Below, one piece after another: positions 1 to 44,400 of a DNA stretch of 64,000 nucleotides; the stretch's first letter is position 1, and every line of letters begins with the position of its first letter. Under the pieces are notes generated by a model. The model was given only the letters and a program-made list of their open reading frames with translations, made no database searches and was not told the origin of the DNA. Made by a program: the position numbers and the translations under genes. Location of the stretch: positions 1 through 64,000 of IMG/VR virus record IMGVR_UViG_3300012979_000032. One strand, given 5' to 3'. The DNA is from a virus. Its lineage: Duplodnaviria; Caudoviricetes.

Positions 1-180
1 ACTATTATTATAGTAAGAATAATTATATCTAGTATAGTAACTATAATTAGTTCTTGTACCGCTAGTATTATAATATGAATAGTTATATCTAGTATAATAT
101 CCATAGTTAGTTCTTGTTCCACTAGTACTATAGTAAGAATAATTATATCTAGTATAATATCCATAATTAGTTCTATTTGC
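1..180 (-). repeat. 60-bp (20-aa) coding tandem repeat, consensus GTRTNYGYYTRYNYSYYNTS, >=3 copies
   Basis: Lines 1, 61 and 121 align at 60-nt period with mostly synonymous differences. Confidence 0.9.
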
Positions 181-2346
181 ATACCTAGTGTAATAAGAAT
201 AATATCCTCTTGTATATGGGCTATATCTAGCCGCATTCCAACGAGCTGCACGATAACTGTATCTATAATAACCAGTAACATAAGAGTGTCTAGTAGTACC
301 ATCATATCTTCTAGCACGATAGCTATAAGTGTAATAGCTAGAGACGTAAGAAGGATATGTAACTCCATCGTATCTTCTAGCACGATAACTATAAGTGTAA
401 TAACTAGAGACGTAAGAAGGATAGGTAGCTCCATCGTATCGAAGAGATCTATAACTATAAGTATAGTAACTAGAAACATAGGAAGGATAGGTTACTCCAT
501 CATATCTCAAAGATCTATAACTATAAGTGTAATAACTTGATACATAAGAAGGATAAGTTAATCCATCATATCTCAAAGACCTATAACTATAAGTGTAGTA
601 GCTAGAGACGTAAGATGGATAAGTTAATCCATCATATCTCAATTGACGATAACTATAAGTATAGTAACTAGAAATATATGAACCATAAGATGCTCCATCA
701 TATCTCCATGTTATATATGTATAAGTATAATAACTAGATACATAATAACCATAACTCGCTCCCTCATATCTTAACTAATTATAACTATAAGTATAATAAC
801 TAGAAATATATGATGGATATGAGAAATATTCAAACCTAACTTGGTTATAATTATAAACATAATAACTCGATACGTACGCAGGACGAGAATAATACTCAAA
901 ACGTAATTGATTATAACTATAAGTATAAGAACCTGCGATGTATCTCCAATCATATGCTAAACCATCATATCTTAATGCTCTATAGGTATATCCATAATAA
1001 CCTGAAATATAAGATCCAACTCTTGAACCTTCGCTGCGAGCAACTCGATAAGAATATGGAATATATCCTGCAATATATAGTTGGTAACCTTCATTAGTTC
1101 TACTATACGGACGCAAATAATAAAAATATGAGACAATAACTTGGTATGTATATGTTCGGTAATAAACGTATGCTGGAGAAGTATAATAAGTAGTATATCT
1201 TGAATAATCTAAATAATATTTATAATAATAATGTCCAGTATGATCTGCATAATATGATCCTAGATAATGAGCATAGGTAGATGCTCGATCAATATAATTA
1301 TAACTATATCGCGAAGCATACCAATATCCAGCCATAGTTTGCCCCATCCAATTATCCCAGACATACATATAATAATTCAAATAAGAAAATTTTGAAGCCG
1401 TATATGTATAATAATATGCATATCCCCAATGACGATTATAAAGATATGAAGGAATCCTTACATATACATAAGACTATGCATCTGAATTATACATACTCAT
1501 ATAATAAGCATATAACCAACGATATCCACTAATATATCTATAACTTCTATAGTGAGCATGCGGACCTGTTATATAATAGGCAGTATAACTATATTGATAA
1601 TATGTATAATAATTATATGCTTCTCGATCTCTTCGGTATCCCGTCTGCGGCGATGAAGGTATGTTTTCCTATCTATAAGCATAAGTCCTATAATAACTAG
1701 ATACATAATTATAATAGGAATATGTAGTTGAATATTGATATTTATATCCATAAAAATAACCGTTAGCGTATTGGTTACTTGGAGTATAGCGCGGCGCAGA
1801 AGCTGCAACTCTCGTATCAGTTGAACTTACTGCAACTTTGATATTACCAGCTTGTCGGTCTCCAACGGGCACAAGAGGAACTTGACCTGTTTTTGTACTT
1901 GATACATTGACTTTTAATTTTTGCTGACCTTCAACAGATTCATAAATAGGATGCTCTTTTACTGAAGTGCCATCAAAAATTTTTAATGTACCGATTTGAT
2001 TTCCACCACGAAATATAATGCTATACACAGCACTATAATCAACGCCACCAACTTTCGCACCAAGAGAGGAGGCAATAAATGGATCATATCGGACACAAAT
2101 TCGATAATAAATTTCTTTGGCATCAGTACCTAAATCTGTAAAAATGCCTTTTAAATCACCAGATTGAACAGAAGAAATTACTCTGCCCAAAGACTTCCAT
2201 GAAGAATCTGCCACATATTTATATTGGATTTCATAAGAAGTCTAATGGGAATTATAAATTGAATCTGTATTTTCCCAAGTGACTGGAATTGAAGATTGGG
2301 TGCGGTCAATCTGTCCTGTTCGTGGACTTAATATATTAATTGCCAT
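1..2346 (-). CDS. Tyr/Ser/Arg-rich tandem-repeat protein with FN3-like N-terminus (partial, >=782 aa, runs off left edge; code 15)
   Basis: ATG at 2346 after GAGAGGG RBS. Frame is open to position 1 except TAGs at 2242, 1669, 1474 and 775. Joins track ORFs 1669..2214 and 775..1380. N-terminus VTWENTDS..(Q)TSYEIQYKY..SSW resembles an FN3 strand pattern. The distal ~590 aa are about 30% Tyr. Confidence 0.85.
245..1000 (-). repeat. 66-bp (22-aa) coding tandem repeat, consensus YVSSYYTYSYRSLRYDGxTYPS, about 10-11 copies, degenerate at the ends
   Basis: Manual translation shows the repeating unit. The DNA copies differ mainly at wobble positions. Confidence 0.9.
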
Positions 2347-2380
2347 ATTTTACCCTCTCTTTCTCAACTTTCATAATTAT

Positions 2381-2409
2381 ATTGTAGCAAAAAATTTAAC
2401 AAAAGTCAA
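2381..2409 (-). promoter_or_regulatory. sigmaA/sigma70-type promoter TTGACT-17-TACAAT with extended -10 TG
   Basis: -35 at 2409-2404, 17-nt spacer, TGn, -10 at 2386-2381. It lies 35 nt upstream of the ATG at 2346. Confidence 0.75.
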
Positions 2410-3206
2410 GTTGAAATCCAAATATGACCAGCGATAGAAGAAGTATAAGTGGATGGTTTTACTTCAAGAATAATACTACCTGAAACCTGGCCACCTTGAA
2501 TATAATCACCAGTTAAAGTTTTACCGACAATATTATTCCATCTATAACTACTTGTACCCAAATTAAACTTATCTGTCGCTCCTGGGATAGCACCCGTAGA
2601 ATTAACTACTAAACCACTACTTCCAAGAGTAGCAGAACTGCCTGTACAAAATGCCAATGAACCATTTGCTGGAGCTAATAAATAATTATAGCCAGTGCTA
2701 GCAAATTTAATACTTGGAGTCCCCGTTGTATTAACCATTAGAGCATTTGTATTTAAATTTCCGCTTGTATCAACATAAACCGTATCATGAGAATAGGTCT
2801 AAGCAGTCGTTGCTTGGCTAGTAGCGCCCACTAAGAATATTTTACTACTTGTATTAGTGGATCCAGCACTCTTTTTAGCTAAAGCAAGTTCATCTGCTAA
2901 TCCATCGATATTACTGATAATATGATTATGGCTATCATCTTTTACCTGTAAATCAATATCTGAGATGTCTCTAGCGCCATCAAAGCTAAAACTGCCCTCA
3001 ACATCTCCCGAATCAAAAGAAATGGTAATGGACTTTTTCCATTTCGTTGCTTCATCTGCATATTTGTTAATTTTTAAACGAGATGTTGAGTCATAATCAA
3101 CGAAAAAGTCAGCAGCATCGTCTCCCGTTTTCTTTACATATGCCCAACCTTCAGTTTTTACCGCAGGAAGGTTGCCGGCACCTTTTAAAATTTTAAATAA
3201 AGCCAT
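2406..3206 (-). CDS. Tail fibre-like / minor tail protein (266 aa; code 15)
   Basis: Joins 2799..3221 and 2406..2738 across one TAG (GATSQATTA-Q-TYSHDTVYVD). C-terminal NLGTSSYRWNNI motif is typical of fibre proteins. Ends in TGA. Confidence 0.7.
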
Positions 3207-3247
3207 ATTATAAAACCTCACTTTCTAAGCTTTTGGTTTTCAATTAC

Positions 3248-3301: not shown

Positions 3302-3334
3302 CAAAAATAAGGGGAAGTGCTTGAGCACTTCCCC
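3302..3334 (-). terminator. Rho-independent terminator
   Basis: 10-bp perfect stem GGGGAAGTGC/GCACTTCCCC followed by TTATTTTT on the minus strand, just after the stop at 3341. Confidence 0.85.
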
Positions 3335-6635: not shown

Positions 6636-9600
6636 TTAGCCTTGAGTAAGAATTCCATCGCAATTATAAGTGTAATCATTTGGAATTCTGGTAAGTGAAC
6701 GTAGGCGCTGTTTGATTTCTTCTTCCTGATTAGGATCATTATAATAGAAAATAATGCTAGTAAAACCACCAGTATTTTTATTATTTATGAATGCATTAGC
6801 AGACAAATCAATGATTCTAGTAGGATCTCCTTGGCCACCAAAGACTAGGCGACTAAAGGCAGGCTTAGCATAAGCGAAAGCAGCATCGCCGATATTAGTA
6901 ACTGTACCTGGAATAGCAATTTCTTCTAATCCACCGATCATGGAATTAAATGCATTCTGTCCAATTATCTGCAATCCTTTTGGCAGTTTTAAAGACTTAA
7001 GAGCTGTCTGATAGAAAGCATACAATTGAATACTGGTAACAGTTGCTGGGAACTCAAAATACTCGAGAGAAGTACATTTACCGAAAGCGCTACTATAGGC
7101 GTCAATACCAGTAATAACTTCTAACTATGCGCCACGCTCCCAGAAAACATGAGTAAGAGCAGACTGGCCGTAGAAATCACGAACCGCAAGAATTAATCTG
7201 CCTTTTGGATCTCTAGCTGGTAACGTAAGTTTTCCAGCAAAACTTACTCCAGGAGCAGGACCAATGCTTGCGCCTTCCCCGAAATCAGTGTAGCTGAACA
7301 AGCTATGGTTAGCTACATTATCATAAACACTTACTCGCTTATAGCAAGCATAGAATTTATAATTCTTAACTGCTCTTAATTGAGAGAAGTCAACTAATTT
7401 CGCTTCTTGGACATCATTAACAACACAAACGCTAGAGTCTTCTGTCCATCCTAAGAATCCATAAACCTCTTCTAACTCTAAGGAATCATCTGAATAAGAA
7501 GGAATTACCTTAGAATTTTCAAGGGTATAGCCATAAAGGATTGGGAAAACATCAACAAGATGTTCATCAGTATCTCCACCGCTATAGAATCTCATTTCAT
7601 AAGGATGCTTTTCGAAGAGAGCATAGAAAGTATAATCTGTACCCAACAAGGCTGGTTTAGCATTTTCCCAAGCCTCATCTTGCTCTTCAGCAGTTGCTTT
7701 AGCATTACTGATTAAATCTTTCGTCTCTAAAGAAGCACTCCAACCTAAGAAATCATAATTTGGTTTTTCAGGCTTATACTTTCTGTATGGGTTTTCAAAC
7801 CAACTATCTCCCGCGATTTTTTGAATACTTAGTTCTTCAGTTTCGCCATCGCTTACATAACTATAAGTTCCTAAGTAATTTCCATCATCGTCGAAATCAG
7901 GTAAAATGAATTTACCAGAAGTGGCTTTATTGACCTTAGCACAGAAAATATTGAGTTTCGGGAAATTCTTGATGATTTCATTCTTAATTGTTAATTCATC
8001 AATAGCATCAGCATTATTAACGTAAATCGTACCACTTAAATCAGGAACTGCGCTATTTTCACTAGGTCCAACTAGCAATGGCTCAGAAATAAACTCTAAG
8101 AGCATGTTAATGTCAGTAATAACATTATCATTCTTAGAATCATAAGCCTCATCAAGCACATAAATTTCACCATTAGCAACTTCCAAATCGAATGTTGCAA
8201 TATTATACTCATAATCTTCTAAGCCGTAATGTCCATTATCTTTCTTATAAGTGCGGCCAGGATCATACTTATCATCTTTAATTAACTGAATATATGGAGA
8301 CCATTTAACATCAGTTAATTTAATCTTGGTATAAGCAGAAGTATTTCTGAGACGGTTTTTATAATACTTTGTAACTAACTTATAGCTATCATAGCCAAAG
8401 TAGTCGCCAGTAATATTAAACTGCGCAATAGAAGTAACTTCTTCAGTGTCAGTGCCCTGAAGGTCAGTTAAACCTTTTACGAACAAGCCTGGCTCAGCAA
8501 TGATTTCACCATTGGCGCTTTCCTTTGTAGGAGTAGTATAAGAAGTTAGAATCTTATTAAGCAATCTTGCTTCAACCAATTCAAGTTTAGTTACTGTTGG
8601 AGGCAAATAGAGGGTATTAAGTGCTACGCCAGGAGCAAAAGTAACATCAGTTAAATTGGAACCAGTAGCACGGAAATTCTCTAACTTCTCACTAGCTGAG
8701 AGGTCTAGAGAAGTAGAACCATTATTCGCAGTATTAATAGTAATATTACAGAAGTTCATTTCTTTGAGAAGGGGCAATCCATTCGCAGAGAAAGAAGGTG
8801 GGTTCATTTTATTGTTATACCATCTAATAGTTTCACCATTTTCAGTTACAAGATTGTTTTCATTATCGGTCATGAGTGCATCGTGACCTAGTTTCAAACG
8901 AGTTAGCTTATTTGCGTCACCCTCAATTTTGAATTCAGTCCAATACATTTTACTTAAGTCGCCAAGATCTTTCATCTGGTCAATACCATAAACATACAAT
9001 AACTGTTCCTTGTAGTTATCACTAGTCTTGAAACCAGCTTCGATGGAATCAATATTAAATCTCAATGGAGTACCAGAGAATTTCTTAGATGGCCAGTTCT
9101 CATTATCTCCGCCGAAGGTGACATAAGAGTCATGAACTGGAGTTACAGTCATCCAGTATTCAGCGTCGAATTCATGAGTTTTAATAGTTTCAGCGCTATC
9201 AGCCCAATAAGAGCCATCTCTTGGATCGACCCAATGGTCAGAGATGTTACTATTGTTAGCCTGTACACGTCCCCAGAGACGTTGAGCGCCTCCACGAGCA
9301 AAATTACCTACATTCAACCAAGAGTCAATATAAGTAATACGATTAGACAAGAACTGACGACGAGACAAGGATCTGTCGCCTTGCAAAGCATACAAGTAGT
9401 CCGTACTTTCTTGCACAAACTAACCACTACCATTAATACGTCCAGTAGTACCATAAAGCTCAGAATCAGGAGAAACAGTTTCAGAACTACCTCTCTTATT
9501 ATAAATTGTTAAGAATTTATAATACTCATCTAAGTTCAAAGCAATCAATGGGCGCTGACCAGTCATAGCGTAGTTCTTAGCGCGAACATTTTTATTTACT

Positions 9601-12600
9601 CTGCACTGCCAGCCGCACTCATCTGGATCTGCATTATACCACTTTTCGATAACATTCACATCTTTCAGTAAGCCCTTTTTACGAGGATTATCGCCACCAA
9701 CAGCGCTGGAAATTCCAGTTTCGCCCTTGAGCTGACGATATTTCTGTAAAATGTGAGTGCTCTTAAAGTTAGTATAGAAGTTATTCCAAAGGACACTATC
9801 AGAAGTAGAGTAGTTACCAGCCTCACTTGCATCAACAGAGTAAGTGAAGGAAGGAATACCAGTATTATTAATACCAAGCTGAGTATCTAAGTCATAGAAG
9901 ATTGGATACCAGATATATTCTCCGCCTTCTTTTAATGGACCCCAAGAAGCCATCATGCAGTTCTTTCCGCGAGAGTCATAACATTCAAACACTTCTGTCA
10001 TAACAAAATAAGTTGATAGATACTCAATATCGAAGTGATCAGTTAATTCAGCTTTAAACTTATCATTACGATATTCTTTAGTGTCATATTTATGAATATT
10101 ATTACCATATTGCTTAGTAATACCAATATAGTATTTTTCCTTATCGGCCTCAAACTCTTCAGCAGTTAAATCAGTAACACGAGTTACAGATTTATTAACT
10201 TGAGCAGTTGGGTCATAAGTATAATACTCTATGCCAGCATCGTATGTATCTTCAGCAGTGCATTGACGAACAAGGCGATCAGCTTCTTTCGCCAACATTG
10301 CTTCATCAACAGTGATGAGATAATATTCCTGAGCACTATCAAAAGCGTCAGCACTTAAAGCGTATTTTCCATTAATATTAATGTAATATTTATTAGGAAC
10401 ATAAGCTTCAATATTTACATTTGCGTGATTATAAACAGTCTTTCCAAGAGTATCAACACCCTGCTCATAATAATCAGTGTTTTCGTCAAATGCTGATTCA
10501 GGGTCTAAAACGTACTCTCCATCTTTATAGACGTAGAAAGTGTTTTGCTTCCAGGCTTTTTCACCAACGGTAGTCTATTTTACTGGCTGGCCCTGATTAG
10601 GAACCTAGTCAGTGCAAGTGCTCCATACCCACTGACACAATTTCTCCCAATTTCTATAATAGTTAGAAATGATCTGTCCTCTATGGACGACATTATCAAT
10701 ATCTAAAGTATTTTCAACACCCTCACCGGGCTTAGGGAATGCGTCAAGAGCATCTTCGTATTTATCTGCGTTCTTATCTGGATCATAAATATAATCCATT
10801 ACATCGCCACCTTCATGATAGCGATATTCAAAAGAGTCGCAAACAATAGGAGCGCTACCTTTAGCGTTGGTGCGATAACCGGCAGCTTCATCATATGCAT
10901 TATTGGCACGAGGAGTAGCTAAGAAGCTTAGTTCCTTACGTCCTTCAGGATCTCTGAAAGAGCAATAAGTTCTACTGTTATCGGAGAATTCCCAACATTC
11001 GGCAATATTACGAACTCGCTCATTGCCTAAGAAGTTAGCAGTAATGGTCTTATCGACCTTGAATCCATAAGCTTCATCAGAGCCTTTATCCAATAGCATA
11101 TTGTAACGTCCAATGTACTGATAATTATCTGCGCTCTTCTTGTGGAAGGCTAAAACAGGATAACCGTCAATATTAGTACGTAAAGAAGATGTTGGCGGAA
11201 GTTTTCCATTTTCATCTTTAAAGGCTTTCGCAGCGACATAATCATCTAATGGATGCTTACTATAAGCGTTGTGAGCCAAACGGCAGAAGCCACCATTATA
11301 AGAACCGGAAGACTCCATATAGTCAATCTTCATAGTAAATTTAGTGGTTCCGACGTCATAGTTATTCATATAGAACCAATCAGTATGACAAGGATTGTCA
11401 ATTGTTTCAGTGGTATTCTCATCAATAACTTTTTCAGCCTCAAGAACTTCGCCATAAGTTAAATAATCATCTTCGAAAGGACCAGCATTCATCCAGAAAT
11501 TAACCTGATCATCGCTGTCCTTGAATTTGAGTTTATAGTTACGACGAGGATAGAACTCAGAAGAAGTACCTTGAACAGACATAGTTACATTATCGCCAGT
11601 AAAAGATGGGCAGTGATGTAAATAATACTGTCTAACAGCTTCAACTTTGACATCAGCACTATCATCTGCGGAGCACAAGCCATCGGCAATAGCCAATTCT
11701 TCAAGCGCACCAGAGCTATACGCATAATCCAATCCGCTGTTCTTAAAAGTTACTCTTCCAGTAACATCATTAGCTTTACTGTAAGGAAGCTCGCTATCGT
11801 CAGAATTAGAAGTATCGAAAATGATATAAGGCATAATATATTTATGTGGATAGAGGCTATTATATCTAATAACGCCGCTTTCAGTGTCAGAACCTAATTT
11901 CAACTGATACTCTTGGATGGCGGTATTTTCAGAAGCGATTTCGCACAAATCATAAATATCGATGTCCTTAGTATCAACAGCATGATTCATAACAATGTCA
12001 TATACATTAAGAGCAGTATTGTAAACACGGAACTGATAAAGGTCAATATCACAGTATTCTGAATTAAATTTAATTCCTTCGCTAGCAATCTTAAAAGCAT
12101 TCTTTACAGTAGAATTAATAGCACCAGTAAGCATACCATTGATATAAATATAAATACGCTTATCAGTATCAGAATAAACCATAGTCAAATAGATCATTTC
12201 GTTCTCTACGTAAGAAACGGAAACTGTATCAGTACCATTAGAGAAGAAAGCGTCTTGAGATCCGAAACAGAAACCAATAACGCCATTTTGATCACCAGAA
12301 TAATAGCCACAAGCAACCTTACTCAAATTAACCTTCTTATAAACATAGTCAAATTCTAATTCATCATAAGACTTGCCAATTGTTGGCAAATAGTGAGCTA
12401 GGAAAGAGTCATAGTTATTATATTGCTTCTGATTTTCATCAGTAAAAGCAGCATAATAATCACTATCTTCTTTATAACGAGTAATATTCTGAATCAAAGG
12501 AGTATAATCTTGAACATTGCGCACTTTAAATTGTGCTTCATAGGTCCAAGAAGAATTAGTCTGAGAACCGCCGGCCAAAGTAGTATCTCCAATAGGCAAA

Positions 12601-14204
12601 ATAAATTCTGCGCCGTTAGAAATTCTTAAACAAGTATGACCTTCGCTATCAGGCTTCCATCCATTATTATACCAGTTAAAGTTATTAAAAGCAGCAGTGA
12701 CATTTACGCTTTGATTTGTATTTTCATAGTTCCAATATTTACGATTTGAAACAGATTCTTCATTAGAGCGACCCTTAGCTTCGAATAAAAGACGTAAGAA
12801 ATCTGGCTTTACAATTACCATTTTTCTATTTGGATCTTCTCTAACTTCGAACTCGATTTCTCTGCGTTCTTCATTATCACCGATGCCGCAAGAAATAGCA
12901 TAATAGTTTTTCATGCCCAAAACAGCGTCGGTAATTTCGAAATAATTAAATCCAGTGTAATTGGAAGAAGGAACTTCGCGAGTTGGGCTAGCAGTTGGTA
13001 AACCATCTTTCCACAATCTAACAGTAGTAGTTTCAGTTGCTGTTGGATCATATACAAGGAAAGGAATACGAATATCATCATAGTTCAGATAAACGTCTTG
13101 ATACTCGCCTAGCCAAATAATCGGCTTCGTATTTGAAGCTTCGCTAATAGCGATTTCCATTTTAATAGGAGGAACGCTCAAAGCTCTAGTCCAAACACCA
13201 TTTTTTACAATGGCCTGGAATAATTTAACCTCAATTAAATGAGCTCCGTGACCAGTAATTGCTTTTCCATTCTTATCAACCGTTGGGAAAGTATAAACTT
13301 GGGAAGAAGCATCGGTTGGTTTTAACTACTGGCTATGAATTAAAGATCCATCAATATAATAATCAAGAATCTTATCCATGTTACCAGTTACGTTACATTG
13401 AACAGTAACTTTATCAGGCTCGAAAATCTTTAAGTTGGAGAAACTTGCGGCCTTAGTTAAAGTCAATTCAGAAGTAGAGAAATCTACAAATTTTGAATTA
13501 GCTTCTCCGCCGTTAATACCACTTGCGTATAAAGTCAAACGAGAAGTGGTTGAAGGTCTTAAATAACTACCAAAATCTAAAGTTGAAACTTCATTATGAT
13601 TAACGTAGAAACCAGGGCCATTGTAATATACAATCCATTGGCTTCCGCGCTTTTCGGCAAGCTGCCAAGTAACAGTCAATTTATCATCCATTGGGCTACC
13701 GTCACTTTCAGTAGCTGAAGCAACAGTAAATTCAATAGAAGCATCCTGACCATTAATTAAGTTGATGTTGTCAGGAGTTTTAATCGTGATTTTTGCGATT
13801 GTTGCAGTGGGCACTCCGCCACTACCGCCTCCGCCGCCACCAGCAACTGCTAATTTCTAACAATACAAGGTAGTTTCATCTTTGTTATGGACTTTGTAAA
13901 AAGTGCCATCATTGTTGAAGACCAAATCATCAATAGCAATTAACTCACTAGGATCAACCAAATGGTCCTAAATAGACAGCAAGAAAAATGTTCCATTAAG
14001 GTATTCGGAATCTGGCTTTAAATCTGCTGGAGCTTTACCGTAGTGAATTGCTACTCCGCTAGCGCCCATTACAATTCTATCTGTTGAATTAACGTCATAG
14101 TAAATCTTGCCAGTATCAGTAGCAAAATAAACTTGACCTTCGTTTTTACTCTGCTCTTGGATACGAGCGTCAATACCACGCGCGATTCTGAATTTAGTTG
14201 GCAT
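6636..14204 (-). CDS. Giant virion-associated protein (2,522 aa; code 15): LamG/ConA-like, CotH-kinase-like, InlB B-repeat-like and BspA-type LRR domains
   Basis: Six track ORFs share one frame and are separated only by TAG. Kinase-like motifs QGTSSEFYPRRNYKLK, YIGRYNM, DSRGKN and WYPIFYDLDTQLG. Repeats PEKPNYDFLGW and YGFLGW. C-terminal FPATVTSIQLYAF, LPKGLQIIGQNAF and IPGTVTNIGDAAF LRRs. Confidence 0.8.
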
Positions 14205-35449: not shown

Positions 35450-38400
35450 TTATACCTTTCTATTAGCATACTGAGCTGCCAAATTAACAAGGTCGCCAAA
35501 AGCTTCCTCAATTTGATTCTTATCAGTAACTGCAGGGAAGCTGGCTTCAATATGAACTTCTTGTTGTAAAGTTCCTTGATTTCCATTAACGCCAGAGGAC
35601 ATTAAAGAAATAAAGCCGCCTGCAGATGCTAAAGCATTCAAATCAATTACGCTAGCAATTTGACGTAAGATTCCAACAGAAGCAAGCATATTAGCAGTAT
35701 CTTCTGCGTTAAGAACGAGTTCCTTCTGATGCAGATAAGCAAGACGTCCTTCAGATCCCCATGCACCAGTATATCCACCAGTGTCATAACCTTCTGGATT
35801 CTCTTGGCGCTCCCTTCTTCTTGCTTCAATTTCAGCAAGCACTCCGGGATCAATATCTAGATCTCCGATTTCGCCATAAGCGGTTAAGAAGTCAAGTAAT
35901 ACGCCTAACATAGCATCAGTTTCAGCTTCCATGGTAGCCATAGCCTAAGAATAATTATTTACCATGTTAGTTACTGCGTCTCCAATAGAAGTGATCTGAC
36001 TGACAATCTCAGTTGCGGCATCAGTGATATCATCAGCAGCATCTTCAGCCTCTTGAGTTGCTGCTTGAATATTACCCAGTAACGCAGATGCCAAATCCTA
36101 AGTTTCAACACCCGCTGCTGCGTTCGCGGCCGCAATTTGTTGTCTCATTGTAGAGTAAGCAGTAACAAGACGTCCAATCAAGCTTTCTCCAGATGGATGC
36201 GCAGGATCAGAACCAAAAACAGCTTCATTAAAGTTCTAGTAGAACTCTTCTTGAGATTCAAATCCGCTGACTTGAGAAAGAACTGTCTAATTCCATTTAG
36301 TAACATAATTCTGTTCCGCAGATAGCTTATATCCAGTATATTTACTAAAGTTAGTCCAATCTTTCTCATAGAGTTCTTTATTGTTACCAAGAACTTTATT
36401 CATTTCACTATTATAATACTCCATTTGAGCAGTATAATGTTCAGTAATGCGCTGGACTTCGGCTTGGTACTTTTCTTCAGTGTCGTAAATTGTAGTATCA
36501 ATCGCCGCAATTTCACTTAACATCTGAGAAGAAAGATTAGCCATATTTTCGCTTAAGCCAGTGATATATTCATCATTTGCTTTTTGCATTTCATATAGTC
36601 TATCAGCATAATCAGACTCAGCTTTAGCAACAGCATCTTCATCCGCAGTATATACGTAGTTATAGTTACCTTCAGAATCACGTCTCATAGTTACTTGGCT
36701 CTTAGCATTTTGGACTTCATCCAATGCAATTTCTGCCATTTTAAGATCTAATTTCTTCTGGAGATAATCTAGATCGTAAGCACTTAGCTCCTAATCACTT
36801 TCAAGTAAATTATTAAGCTCTTTCTGATATTTCAGGAGTTCTTTTTGTGCGCGTACATTAGAGGTACTATCAATCTTATCAGTGAGATCACGAGTCATTT
36901 TAGTGAGTTGATAAATCTTTTCATAATCATCAACATAATTTTGATCTCGTTCATTTACCTTTGCAAAAGCATCTTCAAGTTCAGACAATCCTCCGGCTAA
37001 GCCACCAGACATCATTTCCCCAATATCTCGGACTGCTGCTTCCATATTGCTTTGGAAAGCGTCGGCAGCTGCCTGGAGAGCCTCTTCCCAGGAGGAGAGG
37101 AAAGCTTCTTGAGCTTCATTCATATTATCTTGTGCGGCTTGGTAAGTATCTTTAGCAGCCTTTAATGCAGCAGCATCAATACCGCCTTCGGCGTAAGAAG
37201 CCTGCGCAGCTTCATAGGCAGCCTTGGCCTCATCATATTCAGCTTTTACTGTGTCATATTTAGTTTTATTGGTTTCAAGCTTTGCAATAGATTGAGCAGC
37301 AATAGCATCGTTAATACTCTTTAGCATAGTAGAATTAAATCCACTCATGGTTCTGCCAGTTAAGTCAATAATATTTCTATAAGTTGAAGTAATAGCTTGC
37401 GCATGTTCAACAGTAGAAATATAACGATCCATATCAGCATTGAATTCCTCAAATGCATTAGCCATATGTTCGATAGAATTGACCATTTGCTCAGACATTT
37501 GCTCTGAAGCATCCATTAATCCTTCCATAATAGTTTGAATTAATTCGATATCTCCAGATTGCATTCCTGCATTAACGAGATCCTCTGAACTGATATTTCC
37601 GTTCATTAAGTCTTCTGCTGACCAAACAGTTCCTTCTGGACTATAAGCTTTAAGCAGATCATCTAAAGCAGATTTATGAGCATCAAACTGAGTCTATGCG
37701 ATATCCATTTGTTGGCTCATTAATCCAATAGCCTCAGCTGCACTATAAGCATCGTCTTCAATGCGACTTAATTTATGTTCAAGATAGCCGAGTTGAGCTT
37801 CAGTTACTTCAAGAGCGGTATCAAGTTTGGTTTGAATCTGTCCGATAATATTATCATGCCATTCATTTAAGAAATCATCATATTCCATGCCAAGATCTTC
37901 AAGAAGCTCCATTGTTTCTTCATATTGTTCAAGAGCTTCTTTTGGATCATCAATTAAAGTTTGTTTCAAATAATCTTCATAACCAGAATAGTATTCGCCA
38001 TCTTTGTTAGTCATATCAGAATATTTTTCATCTAACTCTTCTTGAGCTTCTGCTGACATGTTATTATATGAATCAATTGCTGCATTATATTTATCAATTT
38101 GAGAACTTAAAAATTCATCATAATTATTGACATTTCCGTTACCATCAAAAGTCCAACCTGCTGATAAGGCAGCAGATAAGTCTTTCTTTCTCCATTCTTC
38201 TGCTTGGCGCATTTTTTCTTCAACAGCAGCGATTTGCTCTTTAAGAATCTTAGACTCCTATTGCATTGCACTAATGCGATTTTTGCCCCAAGCACGGTCT
38301 TCTTCTTTATTTAAGCGTTCATAGGCATCAGCTAAATCGTCGATAACATTATCAATTTCGTGGTAGCGTTCAATATTATCTTTTTTATTGATTTTATTAG

Positions 38401-41400
38401 CTCGACGAGGATCTCGACGGCCACCGCCGCCTCCTCCACCGCCGCCTCCACCTCCACCGCCGGTACCAGTTTTTTCGGCGCGCTTGGTGAAATTAGGAGA
38501 ACTTCCCCCACTATTTTTACCTTTCGGGACTTGCACAGAATAAGTTGTGGCAGTACCATTTTCAACGTCTTCATTGACTTGGTCAATTGTAATGGTTTTT
38601 GGTTGTCCATCTGCTCCAAGGACAGTTACTGGAACCGGAGAGGTGCTAATATGCTTTTTCAAACCTTCAGCATCCATTTCGACAGTTTCAAACTCTAATG
38701 GCTCCACGTCATAACCCAACATATTCATTGCATCATTTGCAATAGCTACGGCTTCCTCAAAAGATTTTCCTGAAGCCATGGCATCGCTAACGACTCCGCT
38801 CCAGAATCCATTTAAGGTTGCATAGGCTTCATCTGTCCCGGTAATAACATCTCCAGCATTAAAATTAAGTTTACTAATATCATCAGCCAGTCCTGCCAAT
38901 TCTGCTCTAGCTTCACCGAAGTTCTTTTTTAATACATCTTCCGCAGCTCTAGACTGTAATTCATCCAAAGCTTTTTGCCCTTTTTCTCCAGCATTTTCAG
39001 CAGCAGTAGCTATTAATTCAAGGTTTTCTTCATTCTATAAGAAACTATCACTCAAAGCATTGGCTTGCTTCTCAGTCAATCCAAGGACATCTTTATATCC
39101 TTTCCGTAAACCTTTAGCTGCTTCTATCTAGTCTTCCATAGAACCAGTACCATCTTTTAAAGTTTTTGCCCACTTTTTACCGTTAGTGGTTAAATCTTTA
39201 AAGCCACGCTCCATAGCCTTCAGCTAATTGGCATATTCGCGCTAAAGCTCAATAGCCTCTTCTTTAGTGATATTCATTTCTTCCATCATTTGCTAGACAG
39301 ACTACATACCGCCATCAGAATAATCGGAATCTCCACCCTCAGCAACCATTTTTTCAATGTAAGCATCCTAATCTTGAATACTGGCAAAACCAGCGTCTTT
39401 AGCTAATGCCAAACGATTATCTGCCGCTACTTGCTTTCCAGTAGTGCCATCAGCAGCGTCATCAATTACTTCATTACCAGTTTCATATCCTGACGCGCGT
39501 GCATAGGCATCAGCACCAGGCACTGTGGCCATTACAGTCTCTTGAGTATCGCCTTCTCCACGTACCCAATTACCATTAGCGTCTTTACTATAACCCATTT
39601 CCGTCATAGTAGCATCATCATAGGAAAGACTATAACTACCATCAGCATTACGCTTATACCCTTGTAGTGCCATATATTCATCAGTTTGAGCCTAATTAGC
39701 CATTTGCATAAGAGCTTGTGCAGCTGCCTCTGCAGCTCCTGTTAAAGTATCTAAAGAAACAGCTGATAAATCTGCACCTTCCGCTAATCCAAGAGCGCTT
39801 CTAAGCTATTCTTGTTCAGCAACAGTTAAAGATTCAATACCAGAATCACGAGCCTTCTCTAAAACACTTAATTTCTCTTGCTCTTTCGTTATTGCCTGCA
39901 TATTTTCAGCAGTAATCTAACTTGCCATTTGCTAATTCTTAGAAGTGGTTTCAGCCATAGCACCTGCCCAAATATCATTAACAACGGTCTAAGCATCAGT
40001 TTCTTTACCTTCTGCAATTCCAAAACCGCCTTCTTGAGTATAAGACAATAAAGAAGAATCGATTCCTAAAATGGTCGCCAATAAAGCTCCCATAAACTCA
40101 GGATCATTTGTGAATGTAGCCGCATCAGCGTCGGTTCTATGATAAACTCCTCTGTCGTCACGAGTTAATAAACCTTTTTGTACTAATACATCTCCTTCAG
40201 CCTAAGACATTGTAGCCAATTTTTCTGGAGTAAGATATTCATCAATAATTCTTCCTGGTTCTGCTAATAACTTAGGTAAGAGATCAGCATTTATATTAGA
40301 CATAAATTCCTACGTGGTAGTTGTCTATAAGCCGTAAGCTCCATTGGTTGCTGAACCAGTCCAGTCTAAATAAGCCTAAGCTCCACTTGCTTTATAACTA
40401 TTTAGATCAAAAGGATTATAATTGAAATGTGACATTGCAGACCGCTTATCTTCACCAGTTGCTGTCATCCAAGACATAATCTATTCAGTAGTAGCTCCGG
40501 TATTGGCAGGATCATTAATTAAAGCTAAATAGGTATTCTTTAATCCCTCAGCATCATTTTGCATCTAAGACAGTAAAGAAGCACTTTCTTCATCCATTAA
40601 TGCTAAACGGGCAGATGAAATTGCTTTAAATGTAGATACCCAAATATCATAAGTCTACTGAGCGGCATTTTGTTCAGAAGCAACTACACCAGCAACGCCC
40701 TCTATCATGATATCCTTAATTTGTCCCCAAGTTTTTGCAGCAGAAGCGCTTAGTAAAATACCTTCATTATCAATAACTTCTTGCATACGAGCAGTAATTT
40801 CAGCGCCAGTAGCATTATCTCCTAGCTCTTGAATTACACGATCATAAACATCTGCTAATATACCACGCTAATAGTCACTCATACCTTCAATGGCATTAAC
40901 ATCTTCGTTAGCGATAGTTTCCCAATAGGTATGCATATAGTCATCCATCACAGCATCTTGGTCAAATCTTGGCATGTTAGCCATACCTTCTTGCCATTCA
41001 ACTATAATTTCATCAGTAATATTATTCGGATCATAACCTTTAGCAGTTAACCAAGCCTAGCTAGGATTATTTAGATCATATACACCATTTGTTTGAGACA
41101 AATATTGTCCATAATTATTATACCATGACAGGGCATCTGTGCCACCTTCAGCATTTGAAAGTGTACGTCCCATAACACTATTATCATAATGCCATAGACC
41201 ATCTTCTCCTCGAACCATAGCACTCGAAGGACTAGTATCAAATTCAGCAAAGTCTGTTAGCATTGAAGCTTTTACAAGATCTCCAATACCGCCAGCTTTT
41301 ATTTCAGAGAAAGCTCCTTCTGCGGCAGCTAAAGTAGCAGCTGCATAAGAAGTCCAATCGCCAGGGTCTGCCCCAGCTAGACCATCTCTAATACCGACTT

Positions 41401-44400
41401 CAACACCATCTACAACATCATGTCCAATAGGAATCATTAAACGAGAAGGGGATTGAGTCTAGTAAGATTCTCTTGCGGCAGCTTCAGTTGCTGCTGCAGC
41501 CGGATTCCAATCTCCAGTATCAAAATTAGCCAATCCTTCGTTAATGCCAGCAGTCACGCCAGCGACAATATCAGTACCGATTTGTTCCCAATCATAAGCC
41601 TAAAAAGCAGTTTGCGCTTGAGTATAAGTCGCATCCGCTGCTCCATCAAAAACCTCCTAATCAGTAACAGTTTCTATAACTCTTTCTGAAGATGGGGCTT
41701 CTGGTAAAGGAGTTGAGGAAGAAGCTAACTCATATACACCATCTGCATTTTTTGTAACTGACTCATTTGCTTCAAGAGCTCCATAAAAAAGAATTTCATA
41801 TTCTGCTGCCAATTCAGCATCATGCTATTTTAATTGCTCAATAAAAGCCTGAATAGCTTGAATCTAAGCTATATCTGCGTCAGTCTAAAAGTTCATTTGA
41901 CCAATGGCGTCAATGGCCAAACCCATTTCTGCTCGTCTCTGTGCAGTCGCACTATCTAACCATTCTTTAGTCTTATCATGTGTAACTGTTTCAGTACTTT
42001 TCCACCACAATGCTCCAGTCTCATGAGAAGTATCATAAGTTCCTGTTGCCTGTTGCATCATTTCTTCAACATTACCAGAGTCAAAATCTCTAATAAATTG
42101 AGCTGAAGCAGTACCTGCATACTTTTCTCGTAAAGCCTATTCTCTATTTTTCTTTAGATTCTCTTCATAATTAACTGTAACAGTAATTTCAGTATCTTTA
42201 GTTAAATCAGCATTTTTTCCTTCCAAATAATTAACAACTGCAGTCATATCAACGCCAGTTTCACTAGTAAATCCTCGCAGTTCTTCGGCAGTAATTGTGC
42301 TTTCAGTTCCATCGGAAAGAGTTACTGTAATAGGATAATCATTTGGCAGTGCAGCTAAATCTGTTGCTAAATTATCAACTTCACCCTAAATAGTGCCTAA
42401 ATTAGTTGAGAATGTTAATTGTCCAGCATTTAGCTAAATGCCATTTACAGCAGTAGAATCTGTATATCCACTTTCACCCTCAACATCCATGGTTACTTCG
42501 CCAGAGTCATTAGAGCTTAATCCATATCTAGCTAAAGTTTCTTCAATCTAGCCAAAATCGCCTTCATATTTAATAGTTTTTCCATCAAGACTAATCTTAT
42601 CTACTTCTAACTATAAGGCGCTTTGCTAACCTTCTGCCCCCCCAGCCAGTATTAATGAAATAGTTTTAGATCCAGGAGTTCCGCCAACAATAGCAGTATA
42701 CTATTCAGTATAATTACCATTAGTACCATTAAATGTAATAGTTTTTGTAGCCCCATCGGCAGTGCAAGAGGTATAAGTATCTGTATAAGTTTGGCCTTCA
42801 GTTCCAATAAAAGTAATTGTTTTAGTTTCATTATCAGCGGTGCAAGACTCATATGTAGTGGTATAGGTCTATCCTTCTGTACCAATAAAAGTGATGGTTC
42901 TTGTTGCTCCATCGGCAGTGCAAGCCAGAAATTCAGCAGTATACTATTCGCCATCAGTTCCCAAGAACGTAATAGTTCTTGTTGCCCCATCAGCCGTACA
43001 GCTTTCATAAACTGCCTAATAAGATTCACCCTCTGCTCCAATAATTGTAATAGTTTTTGTCCCTGGATCTTGAAGAATCTTAATTTTTCCTGCAGCTTCT
43101 TCATCATTAACTTCTGGTGTTAAAGTAAAAGATCTATCTTCTGTTAAAGAATCAATTTCATCATATACACTCTAAGCAATATCAACAGCTTCAATAGATA
43201 GTAAACTATTATATTCTTTAGCTTTTTCATTATCTACCGCCATTCCAGCAAAAGCAGCTTCCATTGCAGCAGCTGTCTTTTTGCGGATAGCATCGGCAGA
43301 ATCATCATCGTTTAAATTTTGTAAAATAGCCTGGATTCTTTCAGCACTAACTCCAGCTTCATATAATGATGTTTTTAGATCAGCAATATTCTCAAAACTT
43401 AGAGTATCAGCAGATTCTAAATTATCTCTTATAGTGCTCATTGCATCAGAAGCACCAGATTTTTTAGTATTCCAAATTTCATCTTGGGCTTCTTTTGCGG
43501 CTATTGCTTTTTCTCGAGCCTTAGAATAGTAATCATCCTCAGCCTATCGCTTTTCCATCATTAAAGCTTTAAATGCCGCAGAATCTTCTGGATATCCAGC
43601 AATTCTAGCATCTAGCCATCTTGAATAAGCTTGATAAGAAGCTTCATACCACTCTTCATCGGACATGCTTAAATATTCTGTATAAAGATTTGGATCAATT
43701 TCTTTTAAAATTGTTAAATCTTCCGCAGTCATGCTTGCTCTGTTGGAAATCGCTTTTTCGAAGACTCCTTCATATTTAGCAGCCTCTCGCTCTAATTCAA
43801 TAACTCGTTCAAGAACGGCTTCGGCTTCCTCAATACCTTCACCGCTGGCTAAAGCCTCCTAATAAGCTTTCACTGCCTCTGCACAATATTCATATCCACT
43901 AGCTAAAGCAATTAATGATTTAGAGTAAGTCTCTTGACTAATAGTATTATTAGACAACATAGCCTACAATTCTTCAACAGTTGTAGCTGTAGAAGCAATC
44001 ATTTCTTCCAATTCTTGAGTAGCCACTGCCATCTATGCTGGGTCAGTTGCTTTCTAAACGAAATCAAATAAAGTTTCTAGTCTAGAAATATCTCCATTTT
44101 CGGCTTCTGCAATAATTTCATCAATTATTTCTCCAGTATATCCAGCATTGGCAAGCATGGTTCGAAGAGCCTCATTCTTCTCATCGGTATATAAATCTTC
44201 AAACGCTTGAGCCGCGCCCTCTCTATCAGCATCATCCCAGTTAAATTTGGTAACAGCTTCAATGCCAGCAACATTTTTATAAGAATCTAATAATTCCTTC
44301 TAATCTAAAGCCATTTGTTTAGTGGCTTCTCGCATTGCTTCTGCATCACCAATGAATTTACGACTTCCATCAGCCTATAAAGTAAAGAAATCTGCATATG

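Follow-up and report, generated by a model that had tools for sequence, protein, structure and literature searches.

A member of an undescribed family of tyrosine-rich phage proteins, encoded in a variable tail-fibre slot, and its possible modification by dedicated enzymes

Results

The tyrosine-rich gene and its recoding

The stretch of phage DNA analyzed here (the window, 64,000 nucleotides) begins at base 1 of a linear contig of 92,914 bp. When TAG is translated as Gln, a single open frame of 782 codons lies at its left end on the minus strand and reaches past the contig end (Table 1). Joining and comparing the two ends of the 92,914-bp contig revealed neither terminal redundancy nor a Tyr-rich frame at the far end, and no tRNA was found in the contig. 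The frame contains 197 Tyr codons and no TAA, and two of its four TAG codons show cleanly, from within the gene itself, that this phage reads TAG as Gln: at the aligned position of codon 35, at least 90% of 42 family members (described below) have Gln, and codon 524 stands opposite CAA, also Gln, in three paralogous repeat units.

The phage shares several of its features with phAss-1, a gut siphovirus of the Phassvirus group that recodes TAG to Gln and whose suggested hosts are Clostridia (PMC10607447). Both have TAG as Gln in late genes and a very long tape-measure gene, and their portals are related (37% identity). A crAss-like origin was considered and rejected, the portal being related to those of large Firmicutes siphoviruses and of phAss-1. 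The phAss-1 paper describes pectate-lyase-type fibres and does not mention a Tyr-rich protein (PMC10607447).

Table 1. Features at the left end of the window (positions in the window; residues and codons of the Tyr-rich protein)
Feature	Position	Strand	Basis or remarks
Tyr-rich protein gene	1..2346	-	starts with ATG (2346-2344); 782 codons or more; 3' end lost at contig end
Conserved N-terminal module, residues 1-193, two predicted tandem Ig/FN3-like beta-sandwiches	1768..2346	-	AlphaFold
Irregular Tyr-rich zone, residues 194-444	1015..1767	-	composition
22-aa (66-nt) array, 12 units, residues 445-708	223..1014	-	six near-identical core units at 289-684
20-aa (60-nt) array, cut by contig end	1..222	-	Tandem Repeats Finder and protein register
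In-frame TAG (Gln), codons 35, 226, 291, 524	2242-2244, 1669-1671, 1474-1476, 775-777	-	
Sigma-70-like promoter TTGACT-17-TACAAT, extended -10 TG	2381..2409	-	consensus match only; overlaps stop of upstream gene
orf271, short fibre-like gene, 271 aa, one TAG	2406..3221	-	ends in HIWIST; weak match to tail fibre PHROG 19602
Intrinsic terminator	3311..3334	-	10-bp stem, 7 GC pairs, T run

Position in the tail module

The gene had been placed at the end of the tail module, and this position is correct. The order orf319-orf576-orf2522-orf755-orf228 is maintained in 41-47 related phage loci, and orf271 together with the Tyr-rich gene takes the place of the diverse long fibre genes that fill the same variable slot in related phages. 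The terminator splits the conserved tail block from the unit of orf271 and the Tyr-rich gene. The promoter-like sequence of the latter is followed by a GAGAGGG ribosome site; matches to the promoter-type consensus in this AT-rich DNA number 37, against 28 expected. Among 47 syntenic relatives orf271 is specific to the window phage. The gene upstream of a family gene ends in [ILCM]WI[ST][TAE] in seven of eight loci, and in the window, too, the Tyr-rich gene directly follows a short fibre gene whose product has WI[ST]T at its end, so that orf271 is the probable partner carrying the Tyr-rich protein. From gene position alone, we infer that the protein is located in the virion.

The neighboring 2,522-aa tail protein (6636-14204) bears a CotH kinase-like domain (Pfam, 25.7 bits versus a cut-off of 23.8, with the segment scanned alone). 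An LRR_5 domain is also present in this protein. The Bacillus CotH kinase and its Ser/Tyr-rich coat proteins provide a model by which the Tyr-rich protein might, by analogy, be a substrate or partner of the CotH-like domain. The Pfam match is real, both genes lie in one tail module, and Ser, Thr, and Tyr abound in the Tyr-rich protein, but the two genes are not co-inherited. None of 42 related phage records with that CotH-bearing protein, 20 of them at least 90% complete, has a family member, in a search whose positive control worked. Conversely, in one locus with a family gene (L002), the tail-module proteins of the window, the CotH-bearing one included, have no match near that gene. We regard this pairing as very improbable.

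Composition, repeats, and selection

The first 190 residues of the protein have an ordinary composition. Residues 191-782 (592 residues) are 31.4% Tyr, 13.7% Ser, 9.1% Arg, 8.4% Thr, and 5.7% Gly, with 0.5% Lys and 1.2% Glu (1.7% together); they thus combine at least 25% Tyr with very low Lys/Glu. These values agree with the original prediction of at least 590 residues at about 30% Tyr, rich in Ser, Thr, Arg, and Gly and poor in Lys and Glu. The protein register also bears out its proposed succession of an irregular zone, a 22-aa array, and a 20-aa array, with seven Tyr in each unit. Tandem Repeats Finder reports a 66-nt period with 7.7 copies (299-804) and a 60-nt period with about three (1-203); the 22-aa consensus is LTYPSYVSSYYTYSYRSLRYDG and the 20-aa unit is GYYTRYNYSYYSTSGTRTNY. 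The irregular zone is collinear with that of a close relative (P0217) at ~82% identity, and cannot be aligned with those of two other members (P0082 and P0083) past the first ~50 residues.

Divergence between the core 22-aa units is mostly synonymous, as had been claimed: pS is 0.59 versus a pN of 0.13, giving a dN/dS of ~0.12, where a value near 1 would speak against selection on the protein. Because of this ratio and of the conservation of the family, the reading of the gene as a non-coding repeat that is open by chance, or as an artifact, is excluded. This is a real gene, subject to purifying selection, and the earlier observation of a Tyr-rich repeat protein stands. The proposed alternation of Tyr is a different matter. 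Tyr at lag 2 has an observed/expected ratio of 1.06 in the window protein and 1.09 across the family, and YY is depleted, which weakly supports alternation; strong alternation is not borne out.

Predicted structure

AlphaFold, with a 42-sequence alignment, predicts the N-terminal module at a pLDDT of 93.4 as two seven-stranded beta-sandwiches of FN3/Ig-like fold. Foldseek matches this model to Fab, IL-22R1, and phage tail proteins of FN3 or J type. The probability is 1.0 for Fab, IL-22R1, and the phage FN3 proteins; the TM scores are just 0.3-0.45 because the query has two domains. In sequence searches, the fibronectin type III profile (PF00041) does not match, no Pfam family matches the Tyr-rich protein at E ≤ 0.01, and the ESM Atlas, queried with P0004, yields only weak FN3/Ig_J leads. 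The FN3-like character that had been assigned to the N-terminal part is upheld by the predicted structure, with the sequence-level PF00041 match absent.

The repeats are predicted with much lower confidence. The single-sequence model of residues 430-782 has a mean pLDDT of 56, falling below 50 in the 20-aa array. At this confidence, the tail model aligns by VIA-align with right-handed parallel beta-helices (Z 16.6, rmsd 3.6, 286 residues), among them lyases, phi29 gp12, PfbA, and tailspikes, and shows one coil per 22-aa unit. The 22-aa repeat, as modeled, most likely folds as a beta-solenoid, and the earlier suggestion of a beta-solenoid fibre gains low-confidence support from this model and from the variable fibre slot. 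The predicted helix, with ~22 residues per coil, resembles those of phi29 gp12 (PDB 3gq7), HK620, LKA1, Klebsiella depolymerases, and PfbA (3zpp). Unlike in these tailspikes and beta-helix adhesins, to which the protein has no sequence relation (4-10% identity), each coil of the low-confidence model would carry about seven Tyr.

The 22-aa unit also resembles BspA-type leucine-rich repeats (LRR_5, PF13306), which share its period, its register-locked Leu, Thr, Pro, Val, and Ser, and the LRR core positions, occupied here by Tyr. Its score against the BspA LRR profile has a z of 3.9, a level reached by 11 of 5000 shuffles; phmmer E-values for this resemblance are inflated by repetition. Pfam LRR_5 does not match the window protein (P0001), and the AlphaFold model is closer to pectate-lyase-type helices than to LRR horseshoes. 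Homology of the two repeats is, on these comparisons, suggestive only.

A family of Tyr-rich phage proteins

The original prediction had recognized no family for the protein. This remains true of the libraries, as no model of Pfam, PHROGs, or NCBIfam matches it, but a family does exist, as yet unnamed. A phmmer search with the window protein gave 79 matches, with E-values down to 3e-156, and ~50 sequence clusters combine the N-domain with a tail at 27-36% Tyr. The proteins are 300-800 residues long with folded N-domains; the complete member in L056, for instance, has 436 aa. Identity in the N-domain is 77-94% among close relatives and 25-50% across the family, and the window is matched at E 4e-71 by a profile of one family alignment (A1). 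A regular repeat is missing from most members, and the tail sequence drifts while ~30% Tyr is kept in every lineage. The C terminus carries a further signature, a YxYxY motif, which 34 of 40 members have within 14 residues of their end, as compared with 22% of internal windows (p 2e-17). Two members (L007 and P0044) end in SYNYSYY plus four residues. The C terminus of the window protein lies beyond the contig; RYNYSYY, which matches the family motif, is present in every 20-aa unit, including the last ones seen. By sequence comparison, the Tyr-rich protein is a member of an undescribed phage protein family: a literature search found no description of it. There was no match by tblastn in 50,697 phage records, whether the query was the complete protein, its N-domain alone, either of two further members, or the rSAM described below. 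Pattern scans of IMG/VR, run with P0001 and with the subfamily alignments A3-A5, and a first scan of genome contigs were likewise negative.

These properties bear on whether the Tyr-rich part is a folded fibre at all. It could instead be a non-globular, low-complexity sticker, whose Tyr and Arg contacts would drive an amyloid- or condensate-like assembly serving as glue or scaffold in tail or fibre assembly, or in virion clumping. Conservation of composition and not of sequence, the lack of a regular repeat in most members, the low AlphaFold confidence, and the weak lag-2 alternation of Tyr are all consistent with such a role. Against it, purifying selection acts on specific positions within units (pN of 0.02-0.1 between core units), the irregular zone is collinear between close relatives, beta-formers are abundant and Gly, Gln, and Pro scarce, the 22-aa period suits a solenoid coil, and the C-terminal motif is conserved. 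We consider a sticker improbable.

A radical-SAM, UPF0489-like, and GT8 operon in relatives

The protein had also been proposed as a substrate for modifying enzymes encoded beyond the left edge. For the family this is well supported; the window's own downstream side lies off the contig. In L007, L056 (the same as L058), L057, and L059, the Tyr-rich gene is followed by a radical-SAM (rSAM) gene, a ~205-aa UPF0489-like gene, and one or more GT8 genes, spaced by gaps of 18-95 nt and then by overlaps of 1-4 nt or a 1-nt gap. Pfam scores are 49 bits for Radical_SAM and 47 and 45 bits for Glyco_transf_8. The sample comprises four distinct loci from three divergent subfamilies, two of them found via the rSAM gene itself, and the linkage applies to loci, other than the window, whose downstream DNA also carries a close rSAM gene. 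A search starting from the rSAM found a family member upstream in three of three loci. The rSAM proteins share 64-74% identity across loci in which each N-domain has only 25-29% identity to the window protein.

The operon rSAM (~318 aa) has a CX3CX2C motif and eight invariant C-terminal Cys, which are SPASM-like; the Pfam SPASM model does not match it, and every NCBIfam maturase model falls far under its cut-off. Because its nearest solved relatives (viperin, MoaA, BlsE, CteB, and PqqE) include nucleotide/sugar enzymes and peptide maturases alike, the rSAM might make a sugar and not act on a protein. One operon locus also contains a GHMP sugar kinase. The unnamed rSAM clade comprises 573 clusters. 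A wider linkage of rSAM homologues to Tyr-rich genes mostly failed: one of six more distant homologues in Clostridia genomes (L061) follows a Tyr-rich gene, and a 44% identical homologue in a related phage (G012) lies inside an unrelated multi-rSAM cluster.

No rSAM, GT8, or UPF0489-like gene is present in the 92.9 kb of the window phage (~52% of the genome). The operon is likewise absent from L002, a 14-kb record without an rSAM, which has convergent DGR and fibre genes instead. Nor was an oxidase, peroxidase, or laccase seen in the loci examined, which, together with a probably anaerobic habitat and probable hosts of anaerobic lifestyle (a Lachnospiraceae MAG, and the Clostridia suggested in PMC10607447), makes a peroxidase-crosslinked dityrosine coat scarcely credible. 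Apart from frequent YxY motifs, which would suit cross-linking, we found nothing in support of this earlier idea.

Discussion

We propose, with a probability of about one half for the reading as a whole, that the protein is a tail-fibre-tip protein with a docking N-terminal module and a Tyr-rich working end, the latter probably modified by dedicated enzymes. The conserved tandem Ig/FN3-like module probably docks onto the short upstream fibre ending in WI[ST]T, and the fast-evolving C-terminal part, at ~30% Tyr, would be the working end. In the window phage, this part has grown into the regular 22-residue repeat, most likely a beta-solenoid. Since four other loci have radical-SAM and sugar-transferase genes after the family gene, chemical modification of the Tyr/Ser/Thr-rich part is probable. 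Of its dedicated enzymes, the GT8 could O-glycosylate Tyr and/or Ser/Thr, and the rSAM, with its SPASM-like auxiliary cysteines, might introduce a cross-link or perform other radical chemistry, with the UPF0489-like protein alongside. The outcome would be a tip for adhesion or host recognition, modified and resistant to proteases. By analogy with the four loci, the window phage itself may encode such enzymes.

The overall architecture recalls that of phage tailspikes and fibres, which likewise sit in the tail module and join a conserved N-terminal attachment part to a variable distal part. Unlike in tailspikes, the N-terminal module is a predicted tandem Ig/FN3-like pair, and no catalytic groove can be inferred. 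An alternative reading is that the solenoid is an unmodified receptor-binding or generally sticky tip in which a ladder of exposed Tyr, with Arg, Ser, and Thr, binds the cell-wall glycans of the host, and that the relatives' enzymes serve another target, such as a sugar made or attached elsewhere. The beta-helix model and the 22-aa period, the variable fibre slot, the pairing of a conserved N-module with a hypervariable C-terminal part, as in receptor-binding proteins, and the missing operon in L002 and in the 92.9 kb of the window phage are all compatible with this idea. It accounts less well for a tight, overlapping operon after the family gene in three divergent subfamilies. Moreover, ordinary receptor-binding proteins change from one fold to another, whereas this family holds to its Tyr content despite sequence drift, which suggests a constraint on composition, as for an enzyme substrate or a material. 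An unmodified tip thus seems unlikely to us, although it deserves weight.

Modification of the Tyr-rich part would have precedents of several kinds. Tyr is a known target of several radical SAM/SPASM maturases, and the anaerobic sulfatase maturase acts on whole proteins. Glycogenin self-glucosylates on Tyr, and GT8 enzymes extend glycans on serine-rich repeat adhesins. Firmicutes S-layer proteins bear Tyr O-glycosylation (PMC2943079), and phage-encoded glycosylation of virions is found in mycobacteriophages (e.g. PMC11256854). As in GT8 protein glycosylation, the operon couples GT8 gene(s) to a surface-type protein rich in Tyr, Ser, and Thr, within the tail modules of phages or prophages; the relation to glycogenin holds only at the level of the GT8 family (47 bits), and the GT8 genes are known from the relatives, not from the window. 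Among RiPP systems, we compared those of StrB, WgkB, RrrB, PqqE, and CteB (PMC10114670, PMC11851443). The likeness lies in the dedicated rSAM gene, found directly after a repeat-rich, Tyr-rich ORF in the four relatives. The difference lies in the candidate substrate, which is not a short leader-core peptide but a 300-800-aa protein of the virion module with folded domains.

More specifically, and tentatively, we suggest that ~30% Tyr fibre tips are matured by the rSAM/SPASM-like, UPF0489-like, and GT8 enzymes, for example through Tyr cross-links and Tyr-O-glycosylation. This would be RiPP-type chemistry on a whole virion protein, shaping host recognition or persistence in the gut, and the window phage would provide its largest and most regular scaffold. 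The window by itself sustains the more modest claim of a real, selected, truncated family member whose enzyme partners are out of view.

If our reading holds, a family of phage proteins of gut and rumen type, sizeable and so far without annotation, is here named and delimited, one with ~30% Tyr over 100-600 residues, an extreme composition that current domain libraries miss. With the rSAM/UPF0489-like/GT8 operon, the idea that enzymes mature a phage virion protein would then become open to direct test. It would be new, if true, for a structural protein of a phage to undergo radical-SAM chemistry, or for a fibre to carry Tyr-linked glycans, and this would bear on host range, on evasion of immunity or proteases, and on the annotation of a very large unnamed rSAM clade.

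Results

The Tyr-rich gene and its genetic code

The window forms bases 1-64000 of a linear 92,914-bp IMG/VR contig that is ~52% complete (CheckV). The large genes, all encoded on the minus strand, stay intact only if TAG counts as sense. No sequence is common to the two ends of the 92,914-bp contig, and no Tyr-rich frame occurs at its far end; thus, the 3′ end of the Tyr-rich gene is simply missing. In the encoded protein, residues 1-190 have an ordinary composition, and residues 191-782 contain 31.4% Tyr, 13.7% Ser, 9.1% Arg, 8.4% Thr, 0.5% Lys and 1.2% Glu. Twelve 22-residue units, six of them near-identical core units with 7 Tyr per unit, span residues 445-708 and are followed by 20-residue units, also with 7 Tyr each. 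The original prediction of a very Tyr-rich tandem-repeat protein is thus borne out in nearly all details (composition, both arrays and open frame), as is its claim that the repeats differ mainly at synonymous sites: between core units, pS is 0.59 versus a pN of 0.13 (dN/dS ~0.12), and there are no TAA changes among the 197 Tyr codons. The frequent alternation of Tyr that it described holds only weakly, with a lag-2 O/E of 1.06 in this protein and 1.09 across its family. The gene is real, and we give almost no weight to an artefact, or to a dityrosine coat. A near-consensus promoter is predicted ahead of the gene (see table) and is lacking in the neighbouring genes; the promoter-bearing gene nonetheless has a TAG at codon 35.

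Two internal controls in the alignments show that TAG is Gln in this phage. The TAG at codon 35 aligns to a column where at least 90% of 42 family members have Gln, and the TAG at codon 524 corresponds to CAA in three paralogous repeat units. This is in accord with the phAss-1 gut siphoviruses, a group that likewise reads TAG as Gln (PMC10607447) and to which the portal protein of our phage shows a distant relationship (37% identity); assignment to the crAss-like phages was rejected. The tape-measure proteins of phAss-1-group phages are ~3,150 aa (PMC10607447); the window has a longer candidate (see table). In a complete 197.7-kb TAG-recoded relative (L067), three radical-SAM-like genes are clustered, one of them 44% identical to the fibre-linked radical SAM gene described below, and no Tyr-rich, GT8 or UPF0489-like gene lies near that cluster.

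Coordinates of features in the window and at loci of related genomes
Sequence	Position	Strand	Feature
Window	1-2346	-	Tyr-rich gene: single 782-codon frame, ATG start, GAGAGGG ribosome site ahead, runs off contig end
Window	2381-2409	-	Predicted sigma-70-type promoter of Tyr-rich gene, TTGACT-17-TACAAT with TG, overlapping upstream stop
Window	6636-14204		ORF of the 2,522-aa protein
Window	9651-11804	-	CotH-type kinase domain, PF08757, 25.7 bits, over cut-off only when segment scanned alone
Window	35450-49102	-	ORF of 4,550 codons (79 in-frame TAG); probable tape-measure protein of extreme length
L002	2026-5781	-	Convergent DGR set past Tyr-rich gene: reverse transcriptase (PHROG 1423, E 4e-93), DUF4376 tail fibre, tail protein
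L007	3960-4640		Short fibre gene with twin-arginine-like start
L059	5208-5900		Short fibre gene with twin-arginine-like start
L059	9833-16492		Cassette adjoining flagellar genes (FlgK domains)
L061 (G110)	2-1294		Membrane protein ending in long Tyr/Ser/Asp repeat
L061 (G110)	1492-2547		Radical SAM homologue
L067 (G012)	88000-105000		Cluster of three radical-SAM-like genes

A family with a shared N-module

An exhaustive phmmer search against 1.84 billion representatives returned 79 matches. About 50 share the N-terminal ~190-225 residues and have a total length of 300-800 residues; in those that extend far enough, the tail is 27-36% Tyr and 1-7% Lys+Glu. By these alignments, the Tyr-rich protein is a member of a family, not an orphan. 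Nothing matching the protein was found among Pfam, PHROG or NCBIfam models, so the original statement that no family could be recognised stands for these. In the literature searched, we found no paper describing the family, and a phage record collection contained no matching record. Close relatives are encoded on 148-kb and 176-kb contigs.

The aligned tails indicate rapid evolution. Two members (P0082 and P0083) have N-modules 82% and 77% identical to ours and tails that cannot be aligned with it past the first ~50 tail residues; in a closer relative (P0217), the irregular zone is collinear at 82%. Regular arrays are confined to a few members, and their units differ (9, 11, 13 or 22 residues). 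Of 40 members, 34 have a YxYxY motif in their final 14 residues, compared with 22% of internal windows (p 2e-17); the 20-residue units at the cut end of our gene carry it as RYNYSYY.

The remaining ~25 matches are cellular BspA-type LRR proteins, aligned to the 22-residue array in locked register. The unit scores z 3.9 against an LRR column profile (11 of 5000 unit shuffles reach it), and the Pfam LRR_5 model does not match the protein. We take this resemblance to hint at a solenoid-type repeat and do not infer homology from it.

Position in the tail module

We found the conserved tail block orf319-orf576-orf2522-orf755-orf228 again in 41-47 phage loci of IMG/VR, where diverse long fibre genes follow the orf228 homologue. 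Because the window's phage has instead a terminator, orf271 and the Tyr-rich gene at this place, the gene sits in the variable distal-fibre slot. Of 8 loci with a family gene, 7 encode directly upstream of it a short fibre-like protein whose C-terminal end is [ILCM]WI[ST][TAE]. These proteins are dissimilar to one another apart from this end, which suggests that they and the family proteins form a conserved docking pair. At three loci (L006, L007 and L059), the short fibre gene has a twin-arginine-like start, MTR[RK]DFLKKIG and then a run of hydrophobic residues, which is odd for a phage fibre.

The tail block also offered a candidate modifying enzyme. Residues 801-1518 of the 2,522-aa protein, scanned alone, exceed the Pfam CotH cut-off of 23.8 bits, and a genome-level scan agrees. 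The Tyr/Ser-rich protein as substrate of this CotH-like kinase is nevertheless very improbable, as a family member occurs in 0 of 42 related phage records with this CotH-bearing protein, 20 of them at least 90% complete, in a search whose positive control worked. The 2,522-aa protein also has a C-terminal BspA LRR_5 domain, and its homologues are in conserved synteny in 47 IMG/VR phages of 75-400 kb.

An enzyme operon in relatives

At a metagenome locus (L007), a radical SAM gene (rSAM) comes next after the family member. With this rSAM as query, IMG/VR yielded three loci (two distinct ones), all with a family member directly upstream (N-domain profile E 1e-35 to 1e-66). With the family protein of L007 as query, species genomes yielded a contig of a Lachnospiraceae MAG (L059) that has the same gene set. 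Since flagellar genes adjoin the cassette there, this set is a prophage end and gives the host family for one family branch. The order is constant: Tyr-rich gene, rSAM (~318 aa), a ~205-aa gene and GT8, with a second GT8 and a GHMP kinase added at one locus (L057). The gap ahead of rSAM is 18-95 nt, and later junctions are 1-4-nt overlaps or 1-nt gaps, except at the extra L057 genes (26-nt overlap, 10-nt gap). Pfam scores are 49 bits for Radical_SAM and 47 and 45 for Glyco_transf_8; the middle gene resembles UPF0489 weakly, below cut-off (E 0.005 and 0.01).

The rSAM proteins are 64-74% identical between loci, where the N-domains are each 25-29% identical to ours. CX3CX2C occupies residues 10-17, and the C-terminal half has eight invariant Cys, ending CX2CX7CX3C, in a SPASM-like pattern; the Pfam SPASM model does not detect it, and the proteins fall in an unnamed clade of 573 clusters. 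The linkage spans three divergent subfamilies, though not every locus: at L002, a convergent DGR and fibre genes take the place of the operon. Distant rSAM homologues (30-44% identity) generally have no linked Tyr-rich gene; five have no such Tyr-repeat neighbour, and the sole exception (L061, in a Lachnospiraceae-family genome) places a 33%-identical rSAM after a membrane protein unrelated to the family with a SYDSYS-type repeat tail. This pair, which Cys-rich and U32-peptidase-like genes accompany, could be the cellular equivalent of the Tyr-repeat/rSAM pairing. The 92.9 kb of our contig contain no operon gene, and the downstream side of the Tyr-rich gene lies beyond the contig end, where the window's phage may carry one.

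Predicted structure

AlphaFold, with a 42-sequence alignment, predicts residues 1-193 at pLDDT 93 as two beta-sandwiches that resemble Fab, IL-22R1 and FN3/J-type phage tail domains, in agreement with the FN3-like N-terminal part first proposed. Residues 430-782, modelled alone, are all-beta, with a mean pLDDT of 56 and a regular core at 60-78. This model aligns to right-handed parallel beta-helices (Z 16.6, rmsd 3.6, 286 residues aligned; VIA-align), among them PL6 lyases, phi29 gp12, the PfbA adhesin and many tailspikes. A coil in such helices is 22 residues long. Given this alignment and coil length, yet a mean pLDDT of 56, a beta-solenoid is a reasonable but not secure reading of the array. 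A non-globular sticky or amyloid-like assembly protein seems unlikely to us.

Discussion

We think it about an even bet (roughly 0.5) that the protein is a fibre-tip component whose Ig/FN3-like N-module docks onto the short fibre encoded upstream and whose distal Tyr-rich part, probably a beta-solenoid, serves as a scaffold for enzymatic modification. In this reading, GT8 would glycosylate Tyr and/or Ser/Thr, as precedents suggest: glycogenin self-glucosylates on Tyr, and GT8 enzymes act for serine-rich adhesins. Tyr-linked glycans also occur on S-layer proteins (PMC2943079). The rSAM would add radical chemistry in the manner of SPASM maturases, which act on Tyr, Trp, Arg or Lys (PMC10114670, PMC11851443). 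Alternatively, the same solenoid could bind a receptor through an unmodified Tyr ladder, a possible but distinctly less probable reading.

As a kind of protein, a solenoid-bearing distal component of the tail fibre is already known. What is undescribed is the family itself, together with its composition and enzyme operon; if the modification is real, the protein would be categorically new.
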